A stretch of 64,000 nt of DNA. Origin: Candidatus Woesearchaeota archaeon (GTDB taxonomy: Archaea; Nanobdellota; Nanobdellia; Woesearchaeales; UBA9642). Positions 11,248 through 31,808 of the stretch are shown in pieces (position 1 is the first letter of the stretch; each line of letters starts with the position of its first letter). Location: NCBI GenBank assembly GCA_038884715.1, contig JAWABG010000001.1:38287-102286 (forward strand). The letters run 5' to 3'. The notes under the pieces are model-generated. The model saw only the letters and a list, made by a program, of their open reading frames with translations. It was not told where the DNA came from and did no database searches. The position numbers were made by a program, and so were the translations under genes.

Positions 11248-12405
11248 TTATTTCTTCATTAAATATGATGTTGTACATTTTCCTGCTGCTTTTGCCATCT
11301 GTGCTCTGTCTGAGTTATATTCAAAATGCCACCATTCTCCAAAAACATTTTTACTTTCACTACCCAACCTAATCCACCCGTTCTCGCACATCAATCTCTG
11401 CAACAAATCGTGATTTTTTTGTTGTTCTTGAGAATAAAAAAACGGGTAAGGCTTATGTAGCCCGGTATCTAATTCGTGCCCGTTAAAATATATTTTTGAT
11501 ACATCGATGGCTTGTCCTTGTGCATGTCTTGCGGTTGCACATGTTGCACTTGCTGCACCAGACCCTTTTTGTTTTTTTAATTCTTCTTGTTCATGTAGAG
11601 TTCTATAGGCATCACTTATCAATAATGTATACCTCTGTTTTCTTAAATTTTCGGCAGTTGTTTTTAATCCATCGGCGGCAGATTGTGCAAGCATGCATCT
11701 AATTCCTGGTTTACAAGTAATTCCTTCAATATTGTCAATTCCAACTATCTGTTCGTTTGTGCAGCTTGAAGCAGTAATTTTCGTGTCTATTATACTGCTA
11801 GCAACACCTCCAATACTAAAGATTATAGGCTGTATTGCGAGTCCAATAACATTTAATTTTTTTGTGCCTTGCTCTTGTTTTATTATAAATTTATAATTTT
11901 CTGTAGGGATGTTCACATTTGGATACTTTGAAAGATAATTATTTAATTCGTTATTTATATACTGCTTAAAGCTCTCATCATAATCTGGAAAACAGTTATC
12001 TGCTTCATTGCTGTATAAAGGATAAATAAATTGACCGCAAGGATAATTAGGAGTCATTCCTCCTTCGTCAATTGTATTCATTAAAAAGAAATAGCCTCCT
12101 GTTTCGCCAAGGCGAGAGATTGCTTTCAAGACGGATAATTTCGCAGATTGATCAATAAATAACAATGCGTATTCTCCTTCTTGATATGTTTTAAAGATAA
12201 TATATTCCTTATCGCCGATTTTCTCACCACTATCCGCTTTAAAATTTTTGCTAAATAAAATGAATATTATTATTAGACTTGAAACAATAATAAACATAAT
12301 TCCCAAAACAAAAAGTTGTGATTTTTTATCTGTCCTTTTCATTTTAATATGGATATTACTTATTGAATGGTTTTTTCGTACAGTAAAAAAAATAGTGTTT
12401 GACAA
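11248..12405 (-). CDS. Peptidase M15 family zinc peptidase (VanY / L-Ala-D-Glu peptidase-like peptidoglycan hydrolase) with a pilin-like N-terminal anchor.
   Basis: Zn-binding motifs ARHAQGQAIDV (SxHxxGxAxD) and GEWWHFEY (ExxH). N-terminus ...KMKRTDKKSQLFVLGIMFIIVSSLIIIFILF is class III signal-peptide-like. Confidence 0.7.
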   Translation of the reverse strand: MSNTIFFTVRKNHSISNIHIKMKRTDKKSQLFVLGIMFIIVSSLIIIFILFSKNFKADSGEKIGDKEYIIFKTYQEGEYALLFIDQSAKLSVLKAISRLGETGGYFFLMNTIDEGGMTPNYPCGQFIYPLYSNEADNCFPDYDESFKQYINNELNNYLSKYPNVNIPTENYKFIIKQEQGTKKLNVIGLAIQPIIFSIGGVASSIIDTKITASSCTNEQIVGIDNIEGITCKPGIRCMLAQSAADGLKTTAENLRKQRYTLLISDAYRTLHEQEELKKQKGSGAASATCATARHAQGQAIDVSKIYFNGHELDTGLHKPYPFFYSQEQQKNHDLLQRLMCENGWIRLGSESKNVFGEWWHFEYNSDRAQMAKAAGKCTTSYLMKK

Positions 12406-12423
12406 TTTTATGATTAGTTATTT

Positions 12424-12900
12424 CTACGATGAAGATAACGCCACTTGCACTGCTTTTATCTCGCCATTTAACAGGGGAAGATAAACAATTTTGTAAGGAA
12501 GACCAAAAGGTATTTGATTGCTCGTTTTTTTCGGAAAACAAATTATCGCAAAATATTTATTTGGAGAAAGTAGTGCAGTCTGTCGTAATTCCCAATCCGA
12601 GCATTTTTCATCCATATAATACTTAATCTTGTCGTCAGGGCTGTTCATCAACTTCGGATACATACCAAGATAACTCCCGAATGATGTGTCTTCATTTACA
12701 CTATCTCTGAACAAATTTATTGTTTCTCTGTCTTGAGACAATTCTCCAAATTTTTGTTGATAATTTGTCGTTTTTTGTTTAGCACTAAGATAAAAAAGGA
12801 AAATAAGTAATACAATAATAATTATAAAAATTATGATTGAAACAACATCAATCATCACGAAATCTCCTTTTTTATTTTTTAATAATTTACTTACTTTCAT
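12424..12900 (-). CDS. Hypothetical small surface protein with a class III (pilin-like) signal peptide.
   Basis: N-terminus MKVSKLLKNKKGDFVMIDVVSIIIFIIIIVLLIFLF (KKG then a hydrophobic helix). No recognisable domain. Confidence 0.4.
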   Translation of the reverse strand: MKVSKLLKNKKGDFVMIDVVSIIIFIIIIVLLIFLFYLSAKQKTTNYQQKFGELSQDRETINLFRDSVNEDTSFGSYLGMYPKLMNSPDDKIKYYMDEKCSDWELRQTALLSPNKYFAIICFPKKTSNQIPFGLPYKIVYLPLLNGEIKAVQVALSSS

Positions 12901-12993
12901 TTTTATTTTTTATATTTTTTAATTATTATTTATTTTAATTAAATGTTATATTAATTATATTTTTAAATATTTATCAATTATATTTTTTTATGA

Positions 12994-13569
12994 TTATTTT
13001 TCACTAATTAATTTTATATTAAGTATTCCTGAATTAAAAATATTATTCTCAATATATAATACAGAAACATTCTTTTCTATAACGTTAAAATCATTTTTGA
13101 ATACATTTGATTGAACTTCAATACTCTTATAATAATACTGATTATTGTATATAGGACCGAATTGTTTATTATTCGTAGAATCGGTTAATTCTAACTTTAC
13201 AGCCATAACTCTTACATTTCTAAAATTTAATGATTTTTCAATATTACTTCTAGTAAACTTTTTTATGTCAATAATACCAGGATATACCCTTCCAGTATTT
13301 TCATCAACGTAATTTATAATGTTAGGGGAATAATATATCTTGTTAAATATAACATCCATATGTAATGATGAAACATCTAGATTATTTACTACAAAAAAAA
13401 CAATTATCCAAATAAAAATTCCGATTGCAAAAATCAAGAAAAATATCCTAAATATATTTAGTATTGGCTCTTTTAGTGCTGCCCGCTTATTTATTTTTTT
13501 ATTTATTTTATTTTTTATTATTCTACTAATCTTTATTCTATTTTTATTTTCAAATATTTGAAATTTCAT
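12994..13569 (-). CDS. Hypothetical membrane-anchored protein.
   Basis: Single TM (ILNIFRIFFLIFAIGIFIWIIVFFVV) after a basic N-terminus. A 4-nt gap to the upstream gene suggests an operon. Confidence 0.35.
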   Translation of the reverse strand: MKFQIFENKNRIKISRIIKNKINKKINKRAALKEPILNIFRIFFLIFAIGIFIWIIVFFVVNNLDVSSLHMDVIFNKIYYSPNIINYVDENTGRVYPGIIDIKKFTRSNIEKSLNFRNVRVMAVKLELTDSTNNKQFGPIYNNQYYYKSIEVQSNVFKNDFNVIEKNVSVLYIENNIFNSGILNIKLISEK

Positions 13570-13573
13570 TTGA

Positions 13574-14410
13574 TTATTTGTAATTATTTTTTATTACTTC
13601 TACGAGTTTTCTTACAAAATCATTCTTGTTTTCGAATATGCCAGAAGGAAAATTAACTGGAATTAAAATCATAATTGCTGTTTTTTCGGAGCTTATCTGA
13701 CTAAATTCTTGGATGTTTTGCTCTGCAAATTGGGTGTTAAAAAAATTATTAAAGGTGTATTTTAATTCACAAGCAAGGTTTTTACTCATAAAGGATCCTG
13801 GCGGATAAAAAATACTTAGTTTCTCGTCGGGAGAATTCTTAACATAAATTATTAAATTCGGGTTGTTTATGTCTTTAACAAACCCTGTGTTTTCTAAATT
13901 ATTTTCAATACTGTTTGATAAATAAAATAGATTTTGATCAAGTGTAATTATTGAAAAATTTGTTTCTGATACAGATTTTAATGATTTATCACATAATGGT
14001 TGTTGAATTCCTATTCCTAAAACACCGCTCGCATATTCATACCTAAACGCTTTGCTACTGGTTTCTGATTCAATTATTTTAATATTTATATCATTAGCAA
14101 AAGGATAATTTGCATAAACACCTCTTTCTTGCTTTGGAAAATCATAAACAAAAATTTCAGATGACTTTAATGAAACCAAAAAATCTTTTTCGCGTCTGGG
14201 AGAATAATAGACAAAGCCAATTTTTCCTGGTGAAGCTTCAAGGGAATCAATAACCAATGCATTATCCCTGGCAAAATAATTTCTCCAATAGATTGTATTA
14301 TCTGATTTTTGATAAACAAATGCAAAAACAAGCAAGCCTATCCCCATAAGTATCGCGAATTGATTAAAGATATTCCATAATTTTTCTTCATCGCCCCTTT
14401 TATTAAACAT
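13574..14410 (-). CDS. Hypothetical surface protein with a class III-like signal peptide.
   Basis: N-terminus MFNKRGDEEKLWNIFNQFAILMGIGLLVFAFVY (KRGD motif, as in two neighbouring genes). Confidence 0.4.
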   Translation of the reverse strand: MFNKRGDEEKLWNIFNQFAILMGIGLLVFAFVYQKSDNTIYWRNYFARDNALVIDSLEASPGKIGFVYYSPRREKDFLVSLKSSEIFVYDFPKQERGVYANYPFANDINIKIIESETSSKAFRYEYASGVLGIGIQQPLCDKSLKSVSETNFSIITLDQNLFYLSNSIENNLENTGFVKDINNPNLIIYVKNSPDEKLSIFYPPGSFMSKNLACELKYTFNNFFNTQFAEQNIQEFSQISSEKTAIMILIPVNFPSGIFENKNDFVRKLVEVIKNNYK

Positions 14411-14485
14411 AAGAATTAATCTAAGAGAAGATATTTATATAGTTTTAGGTAAAAAATATTTTAAAAAACTAGTTTATATACACTC

Positions 14486-15766
14486 CTATTTACACACTCC
14501 TATTGGCAGGATTTTATTTACTGTTTTATCCCGGCCGTCAGGATTATATCTCTGACTCTCTCCAGAATATAGCTCCATAGAATAAACACAATTTTTTCCA
14601 TTACAATTTTTTCCGAGCTGAGCTAAGGATGAACCTGTACTTTTTCTTAAAGTATATTCTCCACAATCCTTAGTTAAATCAATCTCAACAATCTTATAAC
14701 TAACAGTGTTTTCTAATAATGGTCCACCAAAGACATCATCTCCTATCTGCCTAATTCTAGTAAATGTTTTTCCTTCCTCTAAATCATAAAGTGTGTTATA
14801 GAGCGGAAAGTTGTCTCCAACACCCAAACATTTACCTGTATAAACACCTATGTTTGAATATGTTAAAGGATCATCGGGATGAGAAGAGTATCTAATAACT
14901 TTTTCTGCAAACATACACACTTGATCATTATTGCATTTTGTTCCAAGACAACCAATCATATAAACTGGCAAATCTTCAACTGCAATACCCCCATATCCTG
15001 AAAATGAAATATCATACCCCAATATTCCACAAGGGACTTCTGTGTTTGAACAAGGTCTTTGCTGAGCCAAAATAGTGTCAAGATCGCTAAACTTATTTAT
15101 TGGCTGAGCATAAATATTATAACTATTTCCAATCTTTACCTTAATAAAAAAAACATTGTTAAAATCAGTTGATTTATCAGTTGTTCCTAATTGAAAGAAA
15201 TTTTTAAAAGTCTCTTTATTTAATATAAACACAGGATTTTGAGATTTTGTATATTCAACTTTCATCTTTCCGTCCTTTTCTACAAGGTTTGTTGATACAT
15301 AAACCAAGCCCATGAAATCTACACTCTCAAAAGTTCCCTTATTTAGTGATTTGCAGAACAAGACCTTTGTTTTTTTGTACAAACAAAGACAAGGATTATC
15401 ATATTCTGTATTACTCTCTCCACACTTTTCTGGTTTTTTAAATATATTTTTTCCAATAATTATTTCATCTGATTGATCACCAAAACCTAATATAGAATAA
15501 TCATCGGGAAGATATATTGTTGAGTAAGCATAGTCATTATCTGTTGAATGTAATAATAATCCTTCAAGAATTAATGATGCGGTATTAAAATTCTGTATTA
15601 CTGCTTTATTTAAATCTTTGTTTCCCGAAAATAAATTATATATTAATGGAACAAAAATTGTTAGCAGAATTATAACAACAAGTATTGCAAATATTGCCTC
15701 CACGAGCTGTCCTGTTGTTAAATCTCCCTTTTTTGCTCTTGCAATTTTTTTCCCAATCATAAGCAT
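14486..15766 (-). CDS. Hypothetical Cys-containing surface protein with a pilin-like N-terminus.
   Basis: N-terminus ...ARAKKGDLTTGQLVEAIFAILVVIILLTIFVPLIY. The KKGD motif plus E and a hydrophobic helix resembles prepilin leaders. Confidence 0.4.
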   Translation of the reverse strand: MLMIGKKIARAKKGDLTTGQLVEAIFAILVVIILLTIFVPLIYNLFSGNKDLNKAVIQNFNTASLILEGLLLHSTDNDYAYSTIYLPDDYSILGFGDQSDEIIIGKNIFKKPEKCGESNTEYDNPCLCLYKKTKVLFCKSLNKGTFESVDFMGLVYVSTNLVEKDGKMKVEYTKSQNPVFILNKETFKNFFQLGTTDKSTDFNNVFFIKVKIGNSYNIYAQPINKFSDLDTILAQQRPCSNTEVPCGILGYDISFSGYGGIAVEDLPVYMIGCLGTKCNNDQVCMFAEKVIRYSSHPDDPLTYSNIGVYTGKCLGVGDNFPLYNTLYDLEEGKTFTRIRQIGDDVFGGPLLENTVSYKIVEIDLTKDCGEYTLRKSTGSSLAQLGKNCNGKNCVYSMELYSGESQRYNPDGRDKTVNKILPIGVCK

Positions 15767-15829
15767 AATGAATAATTATAAAGAAATCCTTATTTAAATG
15801 TTACTCTTATTTACATTTATCATGAATAG

Positions 15830-16081
15830 TTAGCTAAATGCTCGCATACAACATACTTTGTTTTCACCGCAGTTTTTTTCATCAAGTGGCTGGTCTCCTG
15901 GCTGGCAATTACTTGTACTGCTGCAATAAAGAGCTTGGCCTCCTATTTCTCCTTCACATTTATTTACGTGCATTGAAGGTTTGATGATTAAAAAATATAT
16001 TAATGCAGCTGCGACAATTATTACTAGAACTACAATTATAATTTCTACAATATGACCTCCCGCTTGTGATTTATTATTCAT
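15830..16081 (-). CDS. Mini-pilin-like protein (83 aa) with a C-terminal six-cysteine knot; paralog 3 of 3.
   Basis: MNNKSQAGGHIVEIIIVVLVIIVAAALIYFLII, then C-x10-C-x5-C-x11-C-x5-CC (CEGEIGGQALYCSSTSNCQPGDQPLDEKNCGENKVCC). Confidence 0.5.
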   Translation of the reverse strand: MNNKSQAGGHIVEIIIVVLVIIVAAALIYFLIIKPSMHVNKCEGEIGGQALYCSSTSNCQPGDQPLDEKNCGENKVCCMRAFS

Positions 16082-16335
16082 TTTTATTTATTTTAAAATT
16101 ACTATTTAATAAAAATTAATTAATTATTAATTAAATCTTATAATAAATTAATAAATATTACTTTTTGTGTTTTTCCAATGATTATTTTTTTCTAATAATT
16201 ATTTTATTGTTTATATATATTAATTAATATACAAAAAATATTATTAATTATTATTTATTTAATATACAACATTAATTAATAGTTTGTTTATCATGATTTA
16301 GTATAAGTTTATGAATTAATATTTTTTGTTATATT

Positions 16336-17631
16336 TTATGTCGCGGCAATTCTTTTTCTTTCTGTTTTTCCTTGCCCCAAAACATTCTCCACATATAAAC
16401 AAATATTATTATTTTCATCATTTGCGGGACGAGTAATTGTTAATTCAGATGTTGCTGTATACTTGCCCCTATTATCTTTTGTTATTGGAGGACAATCGAT
16501 AGTATCATTGGTAATAATATAATACCATTTTTGGGTATTACAAGCATAGTCTGGGCTTTTTGCTTCACATATTAGTTTTATTTCATATTCTCCTGAACTC
16601 TTTTTAAAAATCTCGATTCGAGGAGTGGGATATGTGTCAACAAAAAATATTGGAATTGAAATACTTGCAGCCCAATAATTTGGGTCTATAGTACAGGCAT
16701 TTCCTTTTTGACAATCTTCTTTGTAAACAATTGACTGTAAGCTTAGTTCTTTATTTATCTCTTCATACTTTGGAGTATAAGTAAAAATTAATTTTGTATT
16801 TGTGCATTCAAGATTCTCTGTTCCAACTAAATTACCTTCTTGATTAAGCCATCTTTTATTTACTACATCATAAATATAACCAACACACCTTCTCTTTTTA
16901 TCAGAGTTTATATAGAACTCAATGTTTAATGTCTGACCAATGATTGCATTAAGTGATTGACTATAACCAATATCTTTGTTATTTACTTTTATAGCAATTG
17001 TTGCTCTTGCTTTATCGCTTGAGCGAGAATTTGAAGGGTTGTTTCTATTGTTTGATAGTTCGTTAACATCATTCGGATAATCATATTTTGGAATAATAAC
17101 AATACTTATTGTTTCATCATTATTCTTTATTACAACTACCTTAATATCAGTAACTGAATCATCATTTATATCAGTTTCTAATTCTCCTTTTTTATTAATA
17201 AGAGGTATTGTGTACTGTTTTGGCTCTGTTTGAATTGTTATCTTTACATAATTATCAGTCATTTCATCAATGCTTATAGAATGAGTTACTCCATTTATTA
17301 CAAAAGTTTTTGATTCCCCGACATGCAATGAAAAACTTTGCTCTTCATTTTTAATGCGCCTGCAGCAATATTGCCCAAGAATTTCTTTGTTAGTATTATC
17401 CTTGCATAAAATAATTCCTGATTTAGTTATCATGTATGTATCATCACATTTTTCATAAGTACAATAACCTCCAAAGGTCTCACAAGAATTTATTTTTGTT
17501 GATGTTTTCCAATAATAAAGGTAAATAATGAGCGAAGAAATAACAATAAGTATTAAAACAATTATTAATACCTTTACAAGTCCAACTCCGCTTGTATCAT
17601 CTGCACGTTTGTTAAATTTAAAGTTAATCAT
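16336..17631 (-). CDS. Surface protein (431 aa): pilin-like anchor, then the same 6-Cys module, then a large extracellular domain.
   Basis: MINFKFNKRADDTSGVGLVKVLIIVLILIVISSLIIYLYYW, then CETFGGYCTYEKCDDTYMITKSGIILCKDNTNKEILGQYCC, which has the same C...C...C...C...CC framework as the mini-pilins. Confidence 0.45.
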   Translation of the reverse strand: MINFKFNKRADDTSGVGLVKVLIIVLILIVISSLIIYLYYWKTSTKINSCETFGGYCTYEKCDDTYMITKSGIILCKDNTNKEILGQYCCRRIKNEEQSFSLHVGESKTFVINGVTHSISIDEMTDNYVKITIQTEPKQYTIPLINKKGELETDINDDSVTDIKVVVIKNNDETISIVIIPKYDYPNDVNELSNNRNNPSNSRSSDKARATIAIKVNNKDIGYSQSLNAIIGQTLNIEFYINSDKKRRCVGYIYDVVNKRWLNQEGNLVGTENLECTNTKLIFTYTPKYEEINKELSLQSIVYKEDCQKGNACTIDPNYWAASISIPIFFVDTYPTPRIEIFKKSSGEYEIKLICEAKSPDYACNTQKWYYIITNDTIDCPPITKDNRGKYTATSELTITRPANDENNNICLYVENVLGQGKTERKRIAAT

Positions 17632-17695
17632 TTTATAAAACCAAAAAATTAAGATTTTTAATTTAAGAAAAAAAAAATAAATTTATAACTGACTG

Positions 17696-17941
17696 CTAAC
17701 TGGTTAATGGACAACAAACAAATCCTTTAGCACATCCTTTTTCTCCTGAATTGCCTAATGGATTATTACAAGAACCAATCGGCAGACATTGTCCATTATA
17801 ATTATCTACACATTCTAGTTTTCCCCTGAATAATCCTAACCTGCTCACTAATAAATATGCTATGATTGCTAAAACAATTAATACAATTACTGCAATGATT
17901 ATAACATTCATTGACATTTCAATTCCTTTTTTGTTTTTCAT
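17696..17941 (-). CDS. Mini-pilin-like protein (81 aa) with a C-terminal six-cysteine knot; paralog 2.
   Basis: MKNKKGIEMSMNVIIIAVIVLIVLAIIAYLLV (KKG then I-E, class III leader), then CVDNYNGQCLPIGSCNNPLGNSGEKGCAKGFVCC. GAGGT SD lies upstream. Confidence 0.55.
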   Translation of the reverse strand: MKNKKGIEMSMNVIIIAVIVLIVLAIIAYLLVSRLGLFRGKLECVDNYNGQCLPIGSCNNPLGNSGEKGCAKGFVCCPLTS

Positions 17942-17986
17942 TGTTAACCTCTAAAAGATTATTATACAACTTATCACATAATTTAA

Positions 17987-18229
17987 CTATACCACTTTGC
18001 AGCATATTTTATTAGCATCACAGTCATTAAATGTTCCTCTAACCTGTTCATTTGTACATTCTTCCGGTGTCTTACATAACCCCCCATTCGCAACGCAGCT
18101 CTTCGTTGTTCCTTGATTCACATTTGCACCTGCTCTTAATACAAGAACGGCTAAAATTACTAGAACAATAAGTGCTATCGCCGCAATTATAATAACATTC
18201 ATTGATAATTCAGCACCTTTTTTTTCCAT
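17987..18229 (-). CDS. Mini-pilin-like protein (80 aa) with a C-terminal six-cysteine knot; paralog 1.
   Basis: MEKKGAELSMNVIIIAAIALIVLVILAVLVL is nearly identical to the 17696 leader. It is followed by CVANGGLCKTPEECTNEQVRGTFNDCDANKICC (C-x5-C-x5-C-x10-C-x5-CC). GAGGTGA SD lies upstream. Confidence 0.55.
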   Translation of the reverse strand: MEKKGAELSMNVIIIAAIALIVLVILAVLVLRAGANVNQGTTKSCVANGGLCKTPEECTNEQVRGTFNDCDANKICCKVV

Positions 18230-18537
18230 ATTTTCACCTCAACCCAAGATACACGTTTTAATAATGAAAATGTAATTATTTATAAAACAAGTATAAAACT
18301 CTCTACTTACTACCAGTCAAAGGTATATATAAAGTTTTTGATATTTTTAAATTTTGATGTGTTTAAAATATGTTTGAAAGTTCGTATTTATTTATTATAG
18401 TATATTATCTATTTTATAATATTAATTAATTATTAATTATAATTTATTAAGTTATAATATTTACAATGTTGTGTTTTTTATTGTTTGTATTTACCTCATT
18501 AGTTATATTTTTAATATTGGGTTAGCTTGTTCTCAGT

Positions 18538-19053
18538 TTAATTTGTTTTCTTCTTTAAAATCAGTTTTTCAATCTTAAAAGCAGAGTTCTCAGTATAATC
18601 CTTAACTTTTTCATCAAATAGCAAAACCTTAAATTCATCTGAATCTGATGTAGAGAAGTACTTTATATCATCAGAATAAACAACACATTTATTATTAACC
18701 ATTGCAGGATCAATTCCGACACCATATATTTTAGAAAAGAGATGAATACAAGTATCGGTCCTTTTAATATTCAAAACACTGTATCTAAAATAATAATAAG
18801 CATTCTGCTCCAAAAATAATTCATATTTTCCTTTATTTTTAGTAATATTTTTCCAATTAAGATTGTTAATTTCGTCATCAGATTTTTTATATGGGCCGTT
18901 GTATTGAATAAGAACATAATCGTCTCCTTTCATATTATCATTATTAAGTAATGATTTAGATAGAGGGATTAACCATTTTATTGTTAGAATTAATGCAACT
19001 CCAATAATTAATAATCCTATAAGAAATCCTGTCATTTGTTTTGATTCGACCAT
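18538..19053 (-). CDS. Hypothetical surface protein with an N-terminal anchor.
   Basis: MVESKQMTGFLIGLLIIGVALILTIKWLI, then a soluble domain. No recognisable motif. Confidence 0.4.
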   Translation of the reverse strand: MVESKQMTGFLIGLLIIGVALILTIKWLIPLSKSLLNNDNMKGDDYVLIQYNGPYKKSDDEINNLNWKNITKNKGKYELFLEQNAYYYFRYSVLNIKRTDTCIHLFSKIYGVGIDPAMVNNKCVVYSDDIKYFSTSDSDEFKVLLFDEKVKDYTENSAFKIEKLILKKKTN

Positions 19054-19102
19054 TATAAACCCAAACTTCTTATTTTAAATAAAAAATTATTGTGTGGAAT
19101 TG

Positions 19103-19246
19103 TTATCCAAACAAGTCAAACATTCTTGAAATTCCACCGCTCAGTCTTCCAACAATAAATAATATTATTGCTAAAACAGCTATTGCTATCAGTATCCAGG
19201 CAAGTGGATTATCGAGCATTGATTTTTTTTGTTCAATTATTTTCAT
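19103..19246 (-). CDS. Candidate small membrane protein (47 aa). It falls below the ORF-track cutoff.
   Basis: Manual translation: MKIIEQKKSMLDNPLAWILIAIAVLAIILFIVGRLSGGISRMFDLFG*. One clear TM helix. Same strand as the island genes, 49 nt upstream of 18538..19053. Confidence 0.25.
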   Translation of the reverse strand: MKIIEQKKSMLDNPLAWILIAIAVLAIILFIVGRLSGGISRMFDLFG

Positions 19247-19582
19247 TTTTTTATTATTATACAATAATAATTTAATTATTATATACTCAAGGTATGCATA
19301 TATAATTTATATTATATAATTATTTATATAATTCGTGTTGTATAGTAAATAGTATAAATAGTATATAAAATAATAAAATAGTATAAAATTTATAATAATA
19401 TATTATTATAATAGGAATATATTATAATAAGATGTATTATAATAAGATTTAATACGGCTATATGATTATAACTAAATATTTATTAAAGTTTGTCTTTTTT
19501 ATCTATGTTGTGCTAATAATTTTACAATATTATTATAATACTAATCATATAATATTAATATTTTTTTTATAACCTGTTGTGG

Positions 19583-20536
19583 TCAGACTTTTTCTTTTTG
19601 TGTCGCAATATATTCACAACCAAGATCCTTAATATTTTGAGTATTATATTCAACAATAAATAATCCTGACGCCCACTCTGCATCTGTTGTCTCGAAAATA
19701 GCATCATAGGCAAGTTTTATTCCACTAATTACTACAACAGCGGCACCCCCAATTACCGCAACAGGAAGCCCGACTCCGGAAGCAACAGCAAGTAATAAAA
19801 AGCCCCCCACAACACCAGCCCCAGTTCCTGCAAGAAAAAAACCAAGCCTACTTTTATCTAAGGTGTTTGTATAAAACCTGCTTAGAGATTCTGAACCTTT
19901 AGCATAAACAAAGATAACACCATAATCGTTATTTGTATTTAATGTATCTAATTTTTTTGCTTCAACAGTAATAGGATGGTCTGCGAGATATCTTTGGGAT
20001 TGTGGAGTACTATAACCCGCAAAATAATCAGAAAATGTTATTTTTTTGTTTGGCATATTTACATTTGCCAGATATTCCGTAAATCCTTCTATTGTTTTAT
20101 TCTTTTCCTTAAATGTTATAAATGAACAGACATGACAAAATGTTCCATCCTTTTCCTTGAACATTTCTGGTTTTCCCTCAAGCCATATATTCCAGCAGCG
20201 CCTCATTTCATTTGCTATTTTTGACTTAATATTAAGCTGGGAATTATCATTAATTTTGACAATATTTGTTGGACAATTAATCTTTACAACAAAATCATTT
20301 GCAATTGCTAAATAATTATTACTCATTCCAATCAGCAATGCCTCTTTTGTAACAGCATCCTTACATCTTTGCTCTTCTTCTATAACTTTTTGCTTATCAT
20401 ATATTTTTTTAATAAAAAATCCACCAATTATAAGCATTAATACTGCAAGAATTATTATCACTATAAACATCATTCCATGACCGGAATCATCCTCTCCAGT
20501 ATCTTGAGCCTTCTTATTAAGTTTTTTGAATATCAT
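19583..20536 (-). CDS. Hypothetical membrane protein with an N-terminal TM and a C-terminal Gly/Ala-rich hydrophobic segment.
   Basis: N-terminus MIFKKLNKKAQDTGEDDSGHGMMFIVIIILAVLMLIIGGFFI. C-terminus GFFLAGTGAGVVGGFLLLAVASGVGLPVAVIGGAAVVVISG. Confidence 0.4.
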   Translation of the reverse strand: MIFKKLNKKAQDTGEDDSGHGMMFIVIIILAVLMLIIGGFFIKKIYDKQKVIEEEQRCKDAVTKEALLIGMSNNYLAIANDFVVKINCPTNIVKINDNSQLNIKSKIANEMRRCWNIWLEGKPEMFKEKDGTFCHVCSFITFKEKNKTIEGFTEYLANVNMPNKKITFSDYFAGYSTPQSQRYLADHPITVEAKKLDTLNTNNDYGVIFVYAKGSESLSRFYTNTLDKSRLGFFLAGTGAGVVGGFLLLAVASGVGLPVAVIGGAAVVVISGIKLAYDAIFETTDAEWASGLFIVEYNTQNIKDLGCEYIATQKEKV

Positions 20537-20567
20537 TTTAAATTTTTTGGATATTTCTCTTTTTAAT

Positions 20568-21497
20568 TTATATTAATTTTGAGCATTGATTTTTCAATTC
20601 AGATGTAGGAATAATATAAGCAAAATAAGAACTCAGATGTTTTTCAGCACCCTCTCTTACAAAGTAAATAACATAGGTTTGCATTTTATCAAATTCAATA
20701 TTTCTGTACTGTGCCATGCTTGGATGCTTTGCCCTATTATTAACGATTTCATCCCAGAGCAATCCAATACTAGGTTGTACAACAAAAAATGATATGGCAA
20801 CAGGATCGCTGGCGGGTATATTTAAATAATTTGAATCCATATAATTCTCAAAACAGCTTGGATTATTTGAATAGAAAAAACAAATGGTGTCATCTGACCC
20901 GGGGTATTTGTTTGTAATATATTCATAATATGTAATATCACTATTCGCCATCTTATTTTCTTTCAAATAATTATAGAATCCTGAAAATGAATTCTGAGAT
21001 ACATCTTTATTAAAAGAAATTTGGTCGCAGATAAAGCAAAGCTTCTCATTTTTGCCTAAATCATAATATTGGTCATTCAAAATTTCTAGTTTTCCTTCAT
21101 AGAACTGATACCAGCATCTCTTCAGTTCCTCAGCTAAAAAGGCATTTACGTGCTCGTCTGTTAAAGAAGAGAACGAACGTATTTGCGCCCCCCTATAATA
21201 AAATGAAACCTTATCTCCGTTTACTTCAACTTTTGTATTATAGAATTTAACATTCATCGTATTGCATTCAATTGTAAATGGAGAATCAACTTTCAATGGT
21301 CCTAACTTAAATTTGGTAACTGCTTGAGTATATACACTTGTCTTACATACCTCTCTGTTCTTATAACTATTAAGATTGGTAGTACATTTATTAAGCAATA
21401 AAAGCATTACTGCAAGACCTACTATTATTATAATCAGCGAAACAGTAAACATACTTATTCCTTTTTTGTTTTTTTTCAATAGATTTTCAGATTTCAT
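20568..21497 (-). CDS. Hypothetical surface protein with a class III (pilin-like) signal peptide.
   Basis: MKSENLLKKNKKGISMFTVSLIIIIVGLAVMLLLL. Its start codon overlaps the stop of the upstream micro-ORF (ATGA). Confidence 0.45.
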   Translation of the reverse strand: MKSENLLKKNKKGISMFTVSLIIIIVGLAVMLLLLNKCTTNLNSYKNREVCKTSVYTQAVTKFKLGPLKVDSPFTIECNTMNVKFYNTKVEVNGDKVSFYYRGAQIRSFSSLTDEHVNAFLAEELKRCWYQFYEGKLEILNDQYYDLGKNEKLCFICDQISFNKDVSQNSFSGFYNYLKENKMANSDITYYEYITNKYPGSDDTICFFYSNNPSCFENYMDSNYLNIPASDPVAISFFVVQPSIGLLWDEIVNNRAKHPSMAQYRNIEFDKMQTYVIYFVREGAEKHLSSYFAYIIPTSELKNQCSKLI

Positions 21498-21604
21498 TTA
21501 AGAAAACTCCTCACTATTCTTAAACAAATAAATATGAATATGATTGCTCCAAGTATTGCAAGTATTATTTTTATTGTTTTTTCTGTCAAGGCTTTTTTAT
21601 TCAT
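21494..21604 (-). CDS. Candidate 36-aa micro-pilin-like ORF, translationally coupled to the downstream gene through an ATGA overlap.
   Basis: Manual translation: MNKKALTEKTIKIILAILGAIIFIFICLRIVRSFLK*. Its stop TGA overlaps the ATG of 20568..21497. Its last codons contain GTGAGGAG, which serves as an SD for the next gene. Confidence 0.3.
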   Translation of the reverse strand: MNKKALTEKTIKIILAILGAIIFIFICLRIVRSFLK

Positions 21605-21726
21605 CTTTGTATTAGTTATTTTTTTATATTTAATGTTTGTATTAGTTTCTTATTTTTAATAACTTATTTTAACAATACTTAAAATATATGTTATATATTA
21701 TTAAATTATAGTTTATTTAAAACTTC

Positions 21727-22218
21727 TTATTTGCATATTGCCAGTTCAATCCTCGTACTAATCCCCCCACCTATAGGAATTGGCTGGTTCGAAGTAATTC
21801 CCTGAATACTTGTTCTATTGCATTTATATGAATATGTATAATGTGGGTTTTCAATATTAATCCTATATTTGGTATTCCAAACTAAAAAAGTTTTATTTAG
21901 GATTAGTTCAATGGTTTTATTAATTTGTTGACATGAAGTAAAACCATTACAAATAATTCTTTTTTCCTTATTGCAGTCTACAATAAATTCCTGTATGGAA
22001 TAAGGAATACCTCCACAATCTATCTGTGTATCAAGCAACGCAAGTAAATAAGATTGAGCAAGTTTATCATCAATGTAATTTTTTGGTGTATGTTTAGGTA
22101 TGTGACTTGAGAGTGTAAAAAAGAGATAAGTTCCTATGGCTACAAGCACAACAATTATTGCTAAACCCATAATTTCAATTTGGGATTTTTTGAATTTTTT
22201 TTTAGGATTTCTTTTCAT
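21727..22218 (-). CDS. Hypothetical pilin-like protein with a Cys-containing C-terminal domain.
   Basis: MKRNPKKKFKKSQIEIMGLAIIVVLVAIGTYLFF (KKSQ then IEIMGL, class III leader). Confidence 0.45.
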   Translation of the reverse strand: MKRNPKKKFKKSQIEIMGLAIIVVLVAIGTYLFFTLSSHIPKHTPKNYIDDKLAQSYLLALLDTQIDCGGIPYSIQEFIVDCNKEKRIICNGFTSCQQINKTIELILNKTFLVWNTKYRINIENPHYTYSYKCNRTSIQGITSNQPIPIGGGISTRIELAICK

Positions 22219-22233
22219 ATTAAGTTTAATTAT

Positions 22234-22698
22234 TTAGGCATATCTCTCAACTTTTAATATTGCAAAGCCTCTTGTATTAGTAATGGGATTGTAGAGGTTT
22301 ATTGGTATAAACACTGGATTTTTTAAGACATATTCCTCGGGAATATTTTCATATAAAACAATTTCTTCATTTTCAAAAAACGTTGATGAGTTAGGCAAAA
22401 CTTGTATTATAGATATGTACGCATTACCAAAAAAAGAGGAATAAAAAAATCTTGAATCAGACGATTCCATTAAATTAATAAAGGCAATAACCTTAAGAAT
22501 ATCAATGCAACTGATTTTATTATTTGTGCAATGAATCTCTGGTAAAGAAGAAACTATATTTGCCAACTTTAGTGTGTTTATCTCGCTAGCTTGTTGAATT
22601 TCCTCATTATATTTGTTTCTGTTATACGATGAGTATATTGCAATACCAATAATTATCATTATCAAAATTATTATCACAACTCCCACTGATTCGGCCAT
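22234..22698 (-). CDS. Hypothetical membrane-anchored protein.
   Basis: MAESVGVVIIILIMIIIGIAIYSSY N-terminal TM. A 15-nt gap to the upstream gene. Confidence 0.35.
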   Translation of the reverse strand: MAESVGVVIIILIMIIIGIAIYSSYNRNKYNEEIQQASEINTLKLANIVSSLPEIHCTNNKISCIDILKVIAFINLMESSDSRFFYSSFFGNAYISIIQVLPNSSTFFENEEIVLYENIPEEYVLKNPVFIPINLYNPITNTRGFAILKVERYA

Positions 22699-22806
22699 CT
22701 GAACCTGTGATTTCTTTCTAAACTCTTGAATATTTATTCACCTCTAATATTATAACTGTTTAATTGTTATAATTAATTTTTATAATTGGTTGATTTCTGT
22801 AATGTT

Positions 22807-23835
22807 TTAGTAAACAGTAGGACAGCTTGCTCTACTCAGATCCTCGTTTTCTTTTTCGAGTCTTTGACTGCTCGAGTATATTGTAGCCGCATTACTTCTA
22901 CTTAATTCATCTGTGCTGTTTTTTATTTGATTAAAATAACTGGGAAAATTAACATAGTATTGTTGACACCTGTTGTTATTAAACTGACTCTCAATTTCGT
23001 TTGCTCTTATCAATAAAATTGTAGCAGTGAATCTTAAACGCTTTAATGCCTTTCTCATCGTACAAACATAATATTCTGTATTTTCTGAAAAAATAGCGCC
23101 ATAAATGGATTCTTTTTTTAAAAAGAATGAAGTCTTTGTTGAAAATCCATCTTTGAACTGAATCGTACCATAACTATTTAAAGGATGTTCAAAAATACTA
23201 GAATCAGGATTAATTATTACTGCAGTTGACTTACTGGGTAAAGAGTCAGGAACAGTTTTATAAAATATTAGCCTACAATTATCATAACTAGAACAAGAAA
23301 ATCCGTTTAAAGAAGAAATAAGTTTTTTCGTCTTGTTAAGTGGAATTGTATTATATAAATCAATGATTTCTGGATCATTACCAACAAAAACAAACTGTGT
23401 TCTATCATCTGCAAGCATAAGAAAAGAACCAGCGAGCATTGGAATATTCCAATTAACAGTCCAAGCATAAATATTACCTTTTAGATTGCTCTTAGAAAAA
23501 ATAATTAAGCTCTCAATTGATTTCTCATATCCTTTTATATTAATTGTCGATATATCATCTCTGTCACACGTCATTACAACAGGTGTTCCATACATCTCAA
23601 TAATCCTAAAGGTTCCTTCACTGTTAACGCTCGACTCTTGTGCTGTTCTTAGAACGTTATCAATATTATGAAGAACAGTAATATCAATCTTCTTAAGACC
23701 GGTGCTTTTAATGCTATTAATTAATACTAGAAGAAAAATAAATATTATTGCTCCTGAAATAAGAACAAATATCCAGTTAAATTGTAATTCTATCGTTCCT
23801 CTTTTTTTGATTCTTTTAATTCTCTTTGCAAGCAT
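22807..23835 (-). CDS. Hypothetical surface protein with a class III-like signal peptide.
   Basis: MLAKRIKRIKKRGTIELQFNWIFVLISGAIIFIFLLVLI (KKRG then TIEL). Confidence 0.45.
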   Translation of the reverse strand: MLAKRIKRIKKRGTIELQFNWIFVLISGAIIFIFLLVLINSIKSTGLKKIDITVLHNIDNVLRTAQESSVNSEGTFRIIEMYGTPVVMTCDRDDISTINIKGYEKSIESLIIFSKSNLKGNIYAWTVNWNIPMLAGSFLMLADDRTQFVFVGNDPEIIDLYNTIPLNKTKKLISSLNGFSCSSYDNCRLIFYKTVPDSLPSKSTAVIINPDSSIFEHPLNSYGTIQFKDGFSTKTSFFLKKESIYGAIFSENTEYYVCTMRKALKRLRFTATILLIRANEIESQFNNNRCQQYYVNFPSYFNQIKNSTDELSRSNAATIYSSSQRLEKENEDLSRASCPTVY

Positions 23836-23914
23836 AAAAATAATTCAATGTTGTGATAATATAAAGTTTTTGGAAAAAAATAAATTTAACATTTAATTAA
23901 TATTGTGAATAAAA

Positions 23915-24406
23915 TTAAGTTGTCTCGGAGACAATTGTTGTCTGACCGTTTCCAGTGAATGTCAATTTAAGACCCCTACCAACACTGATACATAAAAATC
24001 CATTATCAACTTCAAGTTTTTCAGAATACGCAAGAGGCTTTGTTTCCTTGCTTGTTACTAAAAAAATGTTCATTTGAACTCCATCTTCTACACTGTCTTT
24101 AATTATTGGATATTGATTAGGGATAATACCATTAGCACCAATTTTATTTGTACTTACAAAGCAGATTTCTTTTGAATTGCATGGCGCCTGTAAGATTTCT
24201 TTATGAACAGATCCATAATCACTATATATATCAATATATTTATTTATATTGCTAATAAATGATGTTTCTTGAATATTGCACTTTTCTATAGTTATTTTCT
24301 TAAATAGATTGGCTCCGATAAGTGCTAAAAAGCCAACAACAATAATAGCAAAAATATATATAAAAACTTGTCCTACAATTTGGGATTTCTTATAAGGTAT
24401 AATCAT
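23915..24406 (-). CDS. Hypothetical pilin-like protein; first gene of the co-directional run.
   Basis: MIIPYKKSQIVGQVFIYIFAIIVVGFLALIGANLF (KKSQ then a hydrophobic helix). Confidence 0.45.
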   Translation of the reverse strand: MIIPYKKSQIVGQVFIYIFAIIVVGFLALIGANLFKKITIEKCNIQETSFISNINKYIDIYSDYGSVHKEILQAPCNSKEICFVSTNKIGANGIIPNQYPIIKDSVEDGVQMNIFLVTSKETKPLAYSEKLEVDNGFLCISVGRGLKLTFTGNGQTTIVSETT

Positions 24407-28214: not shown

Positions 28215-31200
28215 TCACGTAACATCTATAAGTATGTGTGGACCGAATGTGTTGCTTAATCTTATCCTTACTTGGTGCCTTTCTTCTTTATTACCCCCCC
28301 TGTCATAACTAAAGTAGTATAATATCTTTTCATAATTGTTGTTGGGAAATTGCAGTTCTATAGGATTAAGAGGATTATACACATTATAGTTTTCATCAAT
28401 AGCACAGTTCGGATTTGAATCAGGATCATCTCCTACAATGCAGTATCTTGTTTCATTACAGCCAAAGTTGAAATCAATTATACCATAATACATCAAAGTT
28501 GGCTTAGTGTCATTACAAATAAATCCTAGTTTGAGCTGTGTATTATTATAAACATAATTTGGATCAAATGGAAGCCCAGTCACAACATTCATTAACGTTG
28601 TAATTGGTGGAAGCTTGTCAATACCAAACAAAATCGAGTCTCCTAAATCTCCTTGTTTTATTTTTCTATAGTTTGTAAAATTACAGGAAGTATAATAACC
28701 GTAAACTCCTGACTCTGTTGTTTCTGTTGTTGACCAATGATATAGGCCTCCTGTTGTTGAAAATGGAGTTCCTGCACTGTAAATAGGGCTTGAATTTTCT
28801 GTAATTCTGTTGTATCTACATTCAGCAATACTTGAAGTATTAACAGAAATTACAACACTATCAGTCCTTAATGTGCCTCTGGGTTGCGGGTTACTAATAC
28901 TCTTATCAGCATTCAGGATTATTTCCTCTTGCCAAGTGCCGAGATTGCCATAGTCATCAACACACTCAACATTCCATGTATAGTGAGCATCACTCATATA
29001 ATAATAATTTGCATTAAATATTTCACTCATTCCGTGGAATCCGCCCGGAATATAAACTAGAGGATTTTCTGGAATTTGAATAATTTTTGATAATCTACCT
29101 TGGCAGATTGCTTTGTCATTTGTTGTGCATACAATTGATAAATTACTAACCCATACATCAGTACTCTGAGCTGTTTCAAACGATTCTATTATATAATTAC
29201 AATAAATAAGCGGAGGTGATGTATCAATATATAACCGCACGCTTTTTACTGGCTCAATATTTTTAGAGAGGTCCTCTGAAAAATAAAGAAGATCATAAAC
29301 TGCAGATGGCATACTTGTTGTTATTGTTTGAAGATTACTCATACCTTGAATATTAGGGTAATCACATGAAGGACGAATAGATGGAGGAGTTGTAAGTATA
29401 TTCCTTGTGTTTCCTTCCCTTAAAGGATTAACTGAACTAACGTAGTTTAGACAAAAATATGTTGTTGTATTCCCACTATAATAATCATCAGATACAAAAT
29501 ACTCAACATTAAAGTTTTCTCCTGCACCATATATTGGATAAATATATCCATCAGTAGCGTTTCTCAATATTATTGTTGTATTAGGTGGGGTATTGTCATG
29601 AATACATTTTATTGGGTCTGTATTATAAGCACAATCATTCAAAAAATTTTGATCAGCATCTTTAATACATTTCAAGACAGAGTCCCATTTACAGGTTCCA
29701 AAACCAAAATAATCATTACTTCTTGTTATAAACTGGTTTGTCCCAGAAACTTTTTTACGATTATTCCAAGAGACATCTATCAACGACTCTTTTCTTCCAA
29801 TACTAGGAACATGATTAATACAATCAGCTTCTGTGTCAAATTCTTTGCACCCCATAATTTTTTTATGAACACAACTTTGACCAGGCAAAACACCACTACC
29901 ATCTCTGTTATAATAGCAATTACCATACAATTTACATAATTCAGTATTACACCCACCAAATAATTCATTACATTTTGAACAATTCTGAAGAGCCTCATTA
30001 ACTGGCCTACAAATACCAATACCGAGTTCTGTGTCTTGGCCAATAGTTTGCCCTAATGGTGCCCATTCACATACAGCAGGGTTTGTAGTAAACTTATTAC
30101 AAGGATCATTTAAACAACTTTCTTTTGATTTATAATCATAGCATGTTGTTACGTTCGTGCAGTATTCGTATTTATTTGTATTAGTAAATGTTTTTTCAAG
30201 GTAGCATATATTATAAACACTCATATCTGAATCTCCCATATCTTTACAGTTTACAGAGTCATAAATATCATCAGAACCTGCATAATAATAATCAACAAAA
30301 AAATTCAAGTATGCAAACATACCATAAATTCCGTTACATTTATCACAGGGACCTTGATAAGCACATTGTGCCTCGGGAGGATCTGCTACATTCATTATAC
30401 AAATTGTGTCAGTGCCACAAGGCAAACTTACTCTCCTATTTGACTCATCACATCTTCCTATAGTGTTATGATCTATACAAAAACTAGTTTGATTTGAATT
30501 ATAACAATAATCATCTCCTGTTGTTAAACATTTTGTATTTGACTCATTTGACTCTCTTCCATTATTAAAGACTGCAGTAATGTTGTAACAATATTCAGTA
30601 TTACTTAGAATATCGTTAGTATCTATATAATTATTATAGTATACTGGAATTTGTGTTAGCCTGCCGTTGTATTTCTTATTTATAATAAAATGATCTAAAC
30701 AATTGCCTCCATTAAATTCCCAGTTTAATCTTAATGCCCTTGTTCTGTTTAGGTGAGAAATATTTTTTAGTACAGGAACTGATTGTTCACAAGTATTTGG
30801 GCAGATTCTTGTTCCTGCACAATCAATTGCACAATAAGGATTACATTCATTATAATCAGGAAGTATTTGACATGTATTATCACCACAGTAAGGATTTGAC
30901 CTACAATGACATTGTCCTAACTCTCCTTTTGGTATACACAAATCTCTTGGACATGTATTTTGTGGAGGCCCTGGCCAAAAATCTGTTCCATTAAGATAAC
31001 ACTCTTCTCCTTGATCGTGATCATTAATACTTCTACAGAATGAATCGTCAGAAATTACGCAATTAATTACATCTATACTTGGAGGACCGTTACAAGTCAA
31101 GTCTATACAGGTTCTTATTTGATAACCCGTGCCACCGCCATAATTATTACATTGAGAAATTGTGCAATCTCCATAAACTGAATTGCAAGGACTTGAACAG

Positions 31201-31808
31201 TTAAGTATTATATCAAGTACTATATTTTCATTATTTATTAAAACATAACTTGTATTTTGCAAACAGCTTTCTCGGGTTGTGATTATTGTATAGGGAATTA
31301 TTCTATTAACAAACCCAGTAAGTGTATATTCTCCTGATGTACTTGTAACAACACTCGGCCCGCCACTTATACCTATTGTAGCTCCTTCTAGAGCATGACC
31401 AAATGTTCCATTATAAACATGACCACTTACAGTATATCGAGTTTGTATTCTTCTTTGACAAAAATTCAAACAACTATCAATTGCTTCAGGATAGTCATTA
31501 ATATAAAAAAATTCCCAAATATTGTTGTTTGGACATATGAACCTATAAATATTAGAATTCTGACCACTGTAAGAGTCGGGTGGATTACAGCAACATCCCA
31601 GATTACAAGAAGGAATTTGATTACAATCAGTGTCATAATATTGGCCTCCTGCCCCAATACATTGTTGTTGCATAATACTAGAATCACATCTTTGACTATG
31701 TATGATGCAGCAGCTCGCACTTACAGAGACAGATAGTGATATTAATGCAAAAAAGAATATAGATAAAACTAAGAATATACTTAACAACCTTGCTTTATTT
31801 TCTAACAT
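28215..31808 (-). CDS. Giant secreted cysteine-rich surface protein (1197 aa) with a carboxypeptidase-regulatory-like beta-sandwich near the N-terminus.
   Basis: Signal peptide MLENKARLLSIFLVLSIFFFALISLSVSVSA. YTVSGHVYNGTFGHALEGATIGISGGPSVVTSTSGEYTLTG is CarboxypepD_reg-like. The protein is extremely Cys-dense throughout and has no C-terminal TM. Confidence 0.55.
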   Translation of the reverse strand: MLENKARLLSIFLVLSIFFFALISLSVSVSASCCIIHSQRCDSSIMQQQCIGAGGQYYDTDCNQIPSCNLGCCCNPPDSYSGQNSNIYRFICPNNNIWEFFYINDYPEAIDSCLNFCQRRIQTRYTVSGHVYNGTFGHALEGATIGISGGPSVVTSTSGEYTLTGFVNRIIPYTIITTRESCLQNTSYVLINNENIVLDIILNCSSPCNSVYGDCTISQCNNYGGGTGYQIRTCIDLTCNGPPSIDVINCVISDDSFCRSINDHDQGEECYLNGTDFWPGPPQNTCPRDLCIPKGELGQCHCRSNPYCGDNTCQILPDYNECNPYCAIDCAGTRICPNTCEQSVPVLKNISHLNRTRALRLNWEFNGGNCLDHFIINKKYNGRLTQIPVYYNNYIDTNDILSNTEYCYNITAVFNNGRESNESNTKCLTTGDDYCYNSNQTSFCIDHNTIGRCDESNRRVSLPCGTDTICIMNVADPPEAQCAYQGPCDKCNGIYGMFAYLNFFVDYYYAGSDDIYDSVNCKDMGDSDMSVYNICYLEKTFTNTNKYEYCTNVTTCYDYKSKESCLNDPCNKFTTNPAVCEWAPLGQTIGQDTELGIGICRPVNEALQNCSKCNELFGGCNTELCKLYGNCYYNRDGSGVLPGQSCVHKKIMGCKEFDTEADCINHVPSIGRKESLIDVSWNNRKKVSGTNQFITRSNDYFGFGTCKWDSVLKCIKDADQNFLNDCAYNTDPIKCIHDNTPPNTTIILRNATDGYIYPIYGAGENFNVEYFVSDDYYSGNTTTYFCLNYVSSVNPLREGNTRNILTTPPSIRPSCDYPNIQGMSNLQTITTSMPSAVYDLLYFSEDLSKNIEPVKSVRLYIDTSPPLIYCNYIIESFETAQSTDVWVSNLSIVCTTNDKAICQGRLSKIIQIPENPLVYIPGGFHGMSEIFNANYYYMSDAHYTWNVECVDDYGNLGTWQEEIILNADKSISNPQPRGTLRTDSVVISVNTSSIAECRYNRITENSSPIYSAGTPFSTTGGLYHWSTTETTESGVYGYYTSCNFTNYRKIKQGDLGDSILFGIDKLPPITTLMNVVTGLPFDPNYVYNNTQLKLGFICNDTKPTLMYYGIIDFNFGCNETRYCIVGDDPDSNPNCAIDENYNVYNPLNPIELQFPNNNYEKILYYFSYDRGGNKEERHQVRIRLSNTFGPHILIDVT

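Follow-up and report, generated by a model that had tools for sequence, protein, structure and literature searches.

Candidate pilin-like surface proteins with a predicted beta-defensin-type head in a Woesearchaeota gene island

The archaeal proteins described here are best compared with pilins on the one side and with small proteins of the beta-defensin fold on the other. Among archaeal pilins with class III signal peptides, those of the Epd type (TFF system 1) in Methanococcus maripaludis are short, and pilin genes are commonly unlinked to the gene of their ATPase. One study found T4P components to be missing in DPANN genomes; other work describes TFF systems in both Nanoarchaeota and DPANN. 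For DPANN these reports include TFF system 1 (Epd-like, with pilins that have Gln at +1), and earlier work described T4P ATPases in 'nanoarchaea' for which the cognate pilins were not identifiable. Modular type IV pilins, such as PilB of Streptococcus sanguinis, have been placed experimentally in the filament (PMC8179133), and the bacterial defensins reported so far are secreted cis-defensins with the CS-alpha-beta fold (PMC11561630).

We analysed a 64 kb window, the whole stretch of DNA considered here, from the MAG of a Candidatus Woesearchaeota archaeon (DPANN), contig JAWABG010000001.1. ORF translation recovered four minus-strand ORFs, A, B, C and D, at the coordinates in Table 1, and in all four an N-terminal hydrophobic helix is followed by a C..C..C..C..CC module; this bears out the proposal of the initial annotation of a paralogous set, the three small genes plus D, built on a common architecture. 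The leaders had also been described as near-identical, and they are so for A (MEKKGAELSMNVIIIA) and B (MKNKKGIEMSMNVIIIA), but the leader of C, which starts MNNKSQAGGHIVEIIIVV, is divergent. Overall identity is 43-44% between A and B and 24-29% between C and A. An orthologue of gene C, P0004, has the leader KKS followed by Gln. In D, which has no Pfam match, the C-terminal region of ~340 aa contains 8 additional Cys and has no assigned fold. Read from the sequence, GAGGT also precedes the ATG of B, and the Shine-Dalgarno (SD) motifs of A and B are rated strong; the T10 run downstream of B resembles the oligo-T terminators of archaea, and if it acts as one, A and B would be a two-gene unit.

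Table 1. Coordinates of genes A to D, of their parts and of the surrounding island within the window.
Feature	Position	Strand	Description
Wider conserved island	~8093 to 34943		Between RPA and EMC3/SecY genes
Run of ~15 consecutive leader-bearing genes	11248..24406	-	[KR]-[KR]-[G/A/S] leader, then hydrophobic stretch
Peptidoglycan hydrolase, Peptidase_M15/VanY	11248..12405	-	Leader MKRTDKKS, then QLFVLGIMFII
Gene C, QXG00_00275, 83 aa	15830..16081	-	Divergent paralogue; matches P0002; MNNKS leader, then QAGGHIVEIIIVV, then head
Six-Cys head of C	15848-15958	-	C-x10-C-x5-C-x11-C-x5-CC
Gene D, 431 aa	16336..17631	-	Modular version; leader ...NKRA, then hydrophobic helix
Six-Cys module of D	17362-17484	-	C-x6-C-x4-C-x13-C-x12-CC; directly after hydrophobic helix
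T10 run	17668..17677	-	18 nt past stop codon of B; read from sequence
Gene B, QXG00_00285, 81 aa	17696..17941	-	Paralogue; matches P0001; MKNKKG leader, then IEMSMNVIIIAVIVL, then head
Six-Cys head of B	17711-17812	-	C-x7-C-x5-C-x11-C-x5-CC
Gene A, QXG00_00290 (NCBI), 80 aa	17987..18229	-	Canonical mini-pilin-like; ORF call, exact match to P0003; MEKKG leader, then AELSMNVIIIAAIALIVLVILAVLVL, then six-Cys head
Six-Cys head of A	17999..18097	-	C-x6-C-x5-C-x11-C-x5-CC
Conserved hydrophobic helix of A, residues 6-31	18137..18214	-	S at +4, invariant Asn at +6
Predicted class III-type leader of A	18215..18229	-	M-E-K-K-G; from family logo
Shine-Dalgarno-like GAGGTGA	18234..18240	-	4 nt 5' of the ATG of A; read from sequence
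AT-rich intergenic region, 308 bp	18230-18537		Precedes the SD-like GAGGTGA of A

Sequence searches place A, B, C and D in a very large family, not annotated before, that is specific to Woese-, Pace- and Nanoarchaeota-type DPANN lineages. A word-indexed search returned 490 homologues and a profile search 4,279 cluster representatives (50% identity) at E<=1e-3, with 1,754 at E<=1e-10, and all of the 60 genome loci (60/60) come from MAGs of the Woese-, Pace- or Nanoarchaeota type (DPANN). There are usually 2-4 tandem paralogues per locus, with the canonical, A-type copy first in most loci, and the combination of leader, six-Cys module and extra domains is also found in clusters c12, c15 and c18 of other genomes. 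NCBI names one member, P0094, a 'DUF6719 family protein' (PF20477, 27.9 bits against a cut-off of 27), and this model reaches E<=0.01 in 2 of 103 members, P0042 with 25.7 bits lying under the cut-off, and does not match A, B or C. We rejected DUF6719 as a description of the family, the match being borderline and inclusive of the hydrophobic helix, with only P0094 passing the threshold.

The cysteine spacings first given for C were right, whereas those for A (x5, x5, x10) and for the first gap of B (x6) were off by one; in the corrected spacings the last four are identical among A, B and C. A relaxed regular expression for the motif, run on the six-frame translation of the 64 kb, retrieved the four ORFs and one junk frame only. 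The Cys pattern is conserved among homologues, with exactly six Cys in the same order in 241 of 251 small members, and GG-x-C stands ahead of the second Cys in 178 of these 241. Among the same 241, gap 1 is 6-8 residues in 234 and gap 4 is 5-7 in 213, while gap 2 is 3-5 in 160 (family range 3-12) and gap 3 is 9-13 in 173 (family range 9-23). The spacing had been said to fall within the beta-defensin consensus, C-x(4-8)-C-x(3-5)-C-x(9-13)-C-x(4-7)-CC, and that is true of A (6, 5, 11, 5) and B (7, 5, 11, 5) but not of gap 1 of C (10), the last gap of D (12) or the full family ranges of gaps 2 and 3. All seven genuine four-Cys variants, representing at least three N-terminal subtypes, lack exactly C3 and C6, and because these two are lost together a C3-C6 bond is supported; the connectivity of the head is likely to be C1-C5, C2-C4 and C3-C6, where the first two pairs are putative.

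Structure prediction agrees with the idea that the C-terminal ~40 residues are beta-defensin-like. The AF2 model of full-length A (pLDDT 76.7) shows a helix spanning residues 8-42 plus three strands, the head-only model also gives three strands (pLDDT 79), and the predicted three-stranded antiparallel sheet can be superposed on solved beta-defensins. Foldseek against the PDB gave beta-defensin-fold proteins in 7 of 8 matches, and a control search of BFVD gave noise only. Of 26 PDB profile matches, 25 have the beta-defensin fold and align at all six Cys, among them crotamine (E 0.0067) and the tick carboxypeptidase inhibitor, TCI (E 0.014; 0.005-0.014 across profile searches). The Pfam beta-defensin matches stay under the gathering thresholds, with Defensin_beta_2 at E<=0.01 in 3 of 103 (best 1.5e-4) and Defensin_beta in 1 of 103, and A itself has only AtDEF-like, at 18.8 bits and under the 25-bit cut-off.

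The most conserved part of the family is the helix and not the head: column identity averages 61% across the N-terminus but 29% across the head, which is typical of type IV pilins. In a logo of 216 family members the leader, 4-8 residues long, has Lys or Arg at -3 and -2 and Gly (148) or Ala (65) at -1, followed by Gln (124), Val (56) or Ala (20) at +1. The motif after the leader is x-L-S-M-N-V-I-I-I-A-A-I, with Asn at +6 in 216 of 216 and V-I-I-I-A-A-I-x-L in >90%. The M-x-K-K-[G/A]|[Q/V/A] leader and the near-invariant helix together look like a class III (prepilin) signal, by which A would be cleaved after Gly5. Two pilin features are present, the basic leader ending in [KR]-[GA] (MEKKG in A and MKNKKG in B; MNNKS in C, KKS in its orthologue) and a helix of at least 20 residues right after the putative cleavage site (AF2 8-42, core pLDDT 95-97). 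The hydrophobic stretch, ~25 residues, is too long for a normal Sec h-region. Residues +1 to +6 (A/Q-E/G-L-S-M-N) are partly polar, more so than in typical archaeal pilins, and would presumably fail the FlaFind pattern.

We favour, with a probability of about 0.55, the reading that A, B, C and D are type-IV-pilin-like surface proteins with a class III signal and a beta-defensin-type knot as head, and that they work within the apparatus encoded by the island. The short basic leader (M-x-K-K-G/A) would be cut off by a prepilin-type peptidase; the near-invariant helix (xxLSMNVIIIAAIALLVLVIL...) would hold the protein in the membrane and could serve as the assembly interface of a filament or pseudopilus-like surface structure. 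The sole exposed part would be the ~40-residue, three-disulfide, three-stranded knot of the predicted fold. The initial annotation had suggested minor or tip pilins, and for B, C and D, which look minor or modular, this still fits, but A, canonical and first in most loci, is probably the main subunit. As divergent tandem paralogues, B and C are probably minor subunits, and D would be a modular version with a 340-aa domain added on top of the knot. The same annotation had held that this is not a described pilin class, and our searches of Pfam, NCBIfam and the literature found none like it: there was no match to PF04021, PF07790, archaellin or the NCBIfam pilin and class III models (Pfam for A to D at E<=1), and none of 103 family members matched a pilin or class III model of Pfam or NCBIfam. 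A profile of the N-terminus only found no pilin in the PDB; with the full-length profile two archaeal pilins come up, but no better than E 1-1.7. No A24 prepilin peptidase, T4P/TFF ATPase or platform protein lies within +/-10 kb of any of the 60 loci or in the 64-kb window.

These negative searches, together with the study that finds T4P components missing in DPANN, also speak for the strongest competing explanation, to which we give somewhat less than half the credence of the first, namely that the proteins are membrane-anchored and do not polymerise. The signal would then be an uncleaved signal-anchor, or a class III signal cleaved for anchoring only, and the knot would stand only a few residues clear of the membrane, acting as an envelope component or receptor with no filament; through the invariant Asn in their transmembrane helix the proteins could oligomerise within the membrane instead of in a fibre. 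However, the positive-inside rule alone explains neither the fixed, near-invariant Gly or Ala nor the sharing of the motif, as a [KR]K[GA](Q) leader, by at least 12 BLAST-unrelated island families. An extremely conserved helix with a variable head is the pattern of pilins, the tandem 'major plus divergent minor' copies and modular versions mirror pilin loci, and TFF systems do occur in DPANN.

What the pilin-like proteins do may be approached through their neighbours. The run of leader-bearing genes is the core of an island conserved in Woese- and Pacearchaea, in which nine families are kept in 35-54 of 64 loci, and L003 shows the same synteny. Neighbouring large proteins have ordinary Sec signals, for example ...SVSVSA then S at 28215-31808. 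The leader-bearing hydrolase scores 28.7 bits with PF01427 and 28.1 bits with PF02557, both over the cut-offs, and homologous islands elsewhere encode M23, SLT and Amidase_3 domains. The whole leader-bearing set is probably one cell-surface apparatus for contact with other cells, plausibly bacteria. As for the knot, a fast-evolving surface or binding head that is compact and withstands proteases and stress is the likeliest interpretation.

A more specific but doubtful proposal, compatible with either anchoring mode, is that the six-Cys knot recognises some component of the bacterial surface, such as peptidoglycan or lipid II, and by binding it places the archaeal cell, along with the hydrolases encoded in the island, on a bacterium that serves as host or prey. 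Peptidoglycan hydrolases are found in the island of most genomes, the BLAST cluster of this one in 54 loci, and the literature proposes that Woese- and Pacearchaeota use such hydrolases to attach to or attack bacteria. In P0121 a Sec signal is followed by six-Cys modules, nine in tandem, and a GH25 muramidase, an architecture typical of wall-binding repeats with a lysin. Lipid II is a known ligand of several defensins. Yet P0121 stands for just one metagenomic protein cluster, unplaced and with three members, the heads of the family are anionic and highly variable, unlike the cationic defensins that bind lipid II, and co-location with hydrolases may reflect only a shared export route. Equally speculative is a wider extension of the favoured reading, in which the family would supply the so far unidentified major and minor pilins of a Woese-/Pacearchaeal type-IV-filament-like apparatus, with an all-knot filament surface that recognises bacterial envelopes; filament and leader-bearing hydrolases together would make up a machine with which the archaeon attaches to bacterial cells and opens them.

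An antimicrobial role of the head, as a defensin-like peptide (archaeocin) either membrane-tethered, as had been suggested, or released, is improbable. The fold and Cys framework, the sub-threshold Pfam matches to Defensin_beta_2, Defensin_beta and AtDEF-like, one weak NCBIfam match of a family member to laterosporulin (E 0.058) and the antibacterial enzymes in the neighbourhood are what can be said for it. The anionic character of the heads makes the role unlikely: over the part that starts at C1 and runs to the C-terminus, members have a median net charge of -3, and 1% of them have +2 or more, compared with +4 to +8 for hBD1, hBD2 and crotamine. There is no conserved processing or cleavage site between helix and head, selection is strongest on the helix, and bacteriocin-type immunity and export genes are absent nearby. 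The hallmark of antimicrobial defensins, cationic, secreted and soluble, is missing from proteins that are anionic and fused to a transmembrane-length helix, and the knot is unlikely to be a membrane-disrupting peptide.

Slightly less probable again is an enzyme-inhibitor or immunity module like TCI or helianthamide that would control the co-encoded metallopeptidases. By sequence and by structure, TCI and its Pfam family I68 rank among the best matches, and an M15 metallo-carboxypeptidase-like gene lies nearby, but every match is under the family threshold (Inhibitor_I68 at E<=0.01 in 4 of 103, best 4.6e-5, with P0058 at 17.4 bits against a 25-bit cut-off), the tails past CC, in contrast to the inhibitory tail of TCI, are short and lack conservation, and peptidoglycan hydrolases pose no threat to an archaeon, which has no murein. 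Chance ORFs or an annotation artefact, which short genes in a window of ~27-30% GC, where spurious ORFs are common, might suggest, are refuted by thousands of homologues with conserved Cys, tandem loci and conserved synteny, with SD motifs ahead of the genes and a confidently predicted helix.

On the present data, homology to and convergence with the animal beta-defensins are indistinguishable. Should the knot and the trans-defensins of animals prove to be true homologues, the beta-defensin fold would be older than animals, with its origin in a prokaryotic surface or binding module.

Compared with beta-defensins and the wider beta-defensin (trans-defensin) fold (hBD1, hBD2, hBD6, gallin, AvBD11, crotamine and the platypus DLPs), the family shares six Cys ending in CC, overlapping spacings, G-x-C before the second Cys and the predicted three-stranded antiparallel sheet, and the joint loss of C3 and C6 fits their C3-C6 bond. 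Beta-defensins, however, are animal, cationic and made with a cleaved Sec signal and propeptide, whereas the family is archaeal and anionic with a pilin-like membrane helix, often has longer loops 2 and 3, and stays below the Pfam gathering thresholds. TCI (MEROPS I68) and helianthamide, a sea-anemone alpha-amylase inhibitor, are beta-defensin-fold proteins that are not antimicrobial; they are secreted, soluble animal proteins with inhibitory tails or loops, and the family has no such conserved element. Big defensins likewise join a hydrophobic N-terminal part to a six-Cys C-terminal domain (2rng is a weak PDB match, E 1.1), but their N-terminal domain is soluble, globular and released by a Sec signal, where the family has a single transmembrane-length helix with a prepilin-type leader. 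Bacterial cis-defensins and laterosporulin-type bacteriocins are also small three-disulfide prokaryotic peptides; the family differs in its predicted trans/beta-defensin-type topology, its membrane anchor and its archaeal origin.

Modular pilins of the PilB type are bacterial, have another pilin module and have been shown in filaments, whereas the present family is known from sequence; in both, domains are grafted onto a complete small pilin-like module, here in D and in clusters c12, c15 and c18, and the peptidoglycan hydrolases of the island carry the same leader as the mini-pilins. Archaeal pilins have the motif Q-x-S-x-E and an Ig-like or alpha-beta head, whereas the family has x-x-L-S-M-N-V-I-I-I (S at +4, N at +6) and a predicted three-disulfide, defensin-like knot, matches no curated pilin model and has no machinery in the neighbourhoods searched. 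With the Epd pilins it nevertheless shares the basic leader ending in K/R-G/A, often with Gln at +1, a very small mature size of ~75 aa and tandem paralogues with larger modular versions, and in the family, as in archaeal type IV and Epd pilins, the ~25-residue hydrophobic helix is the most conserved part.

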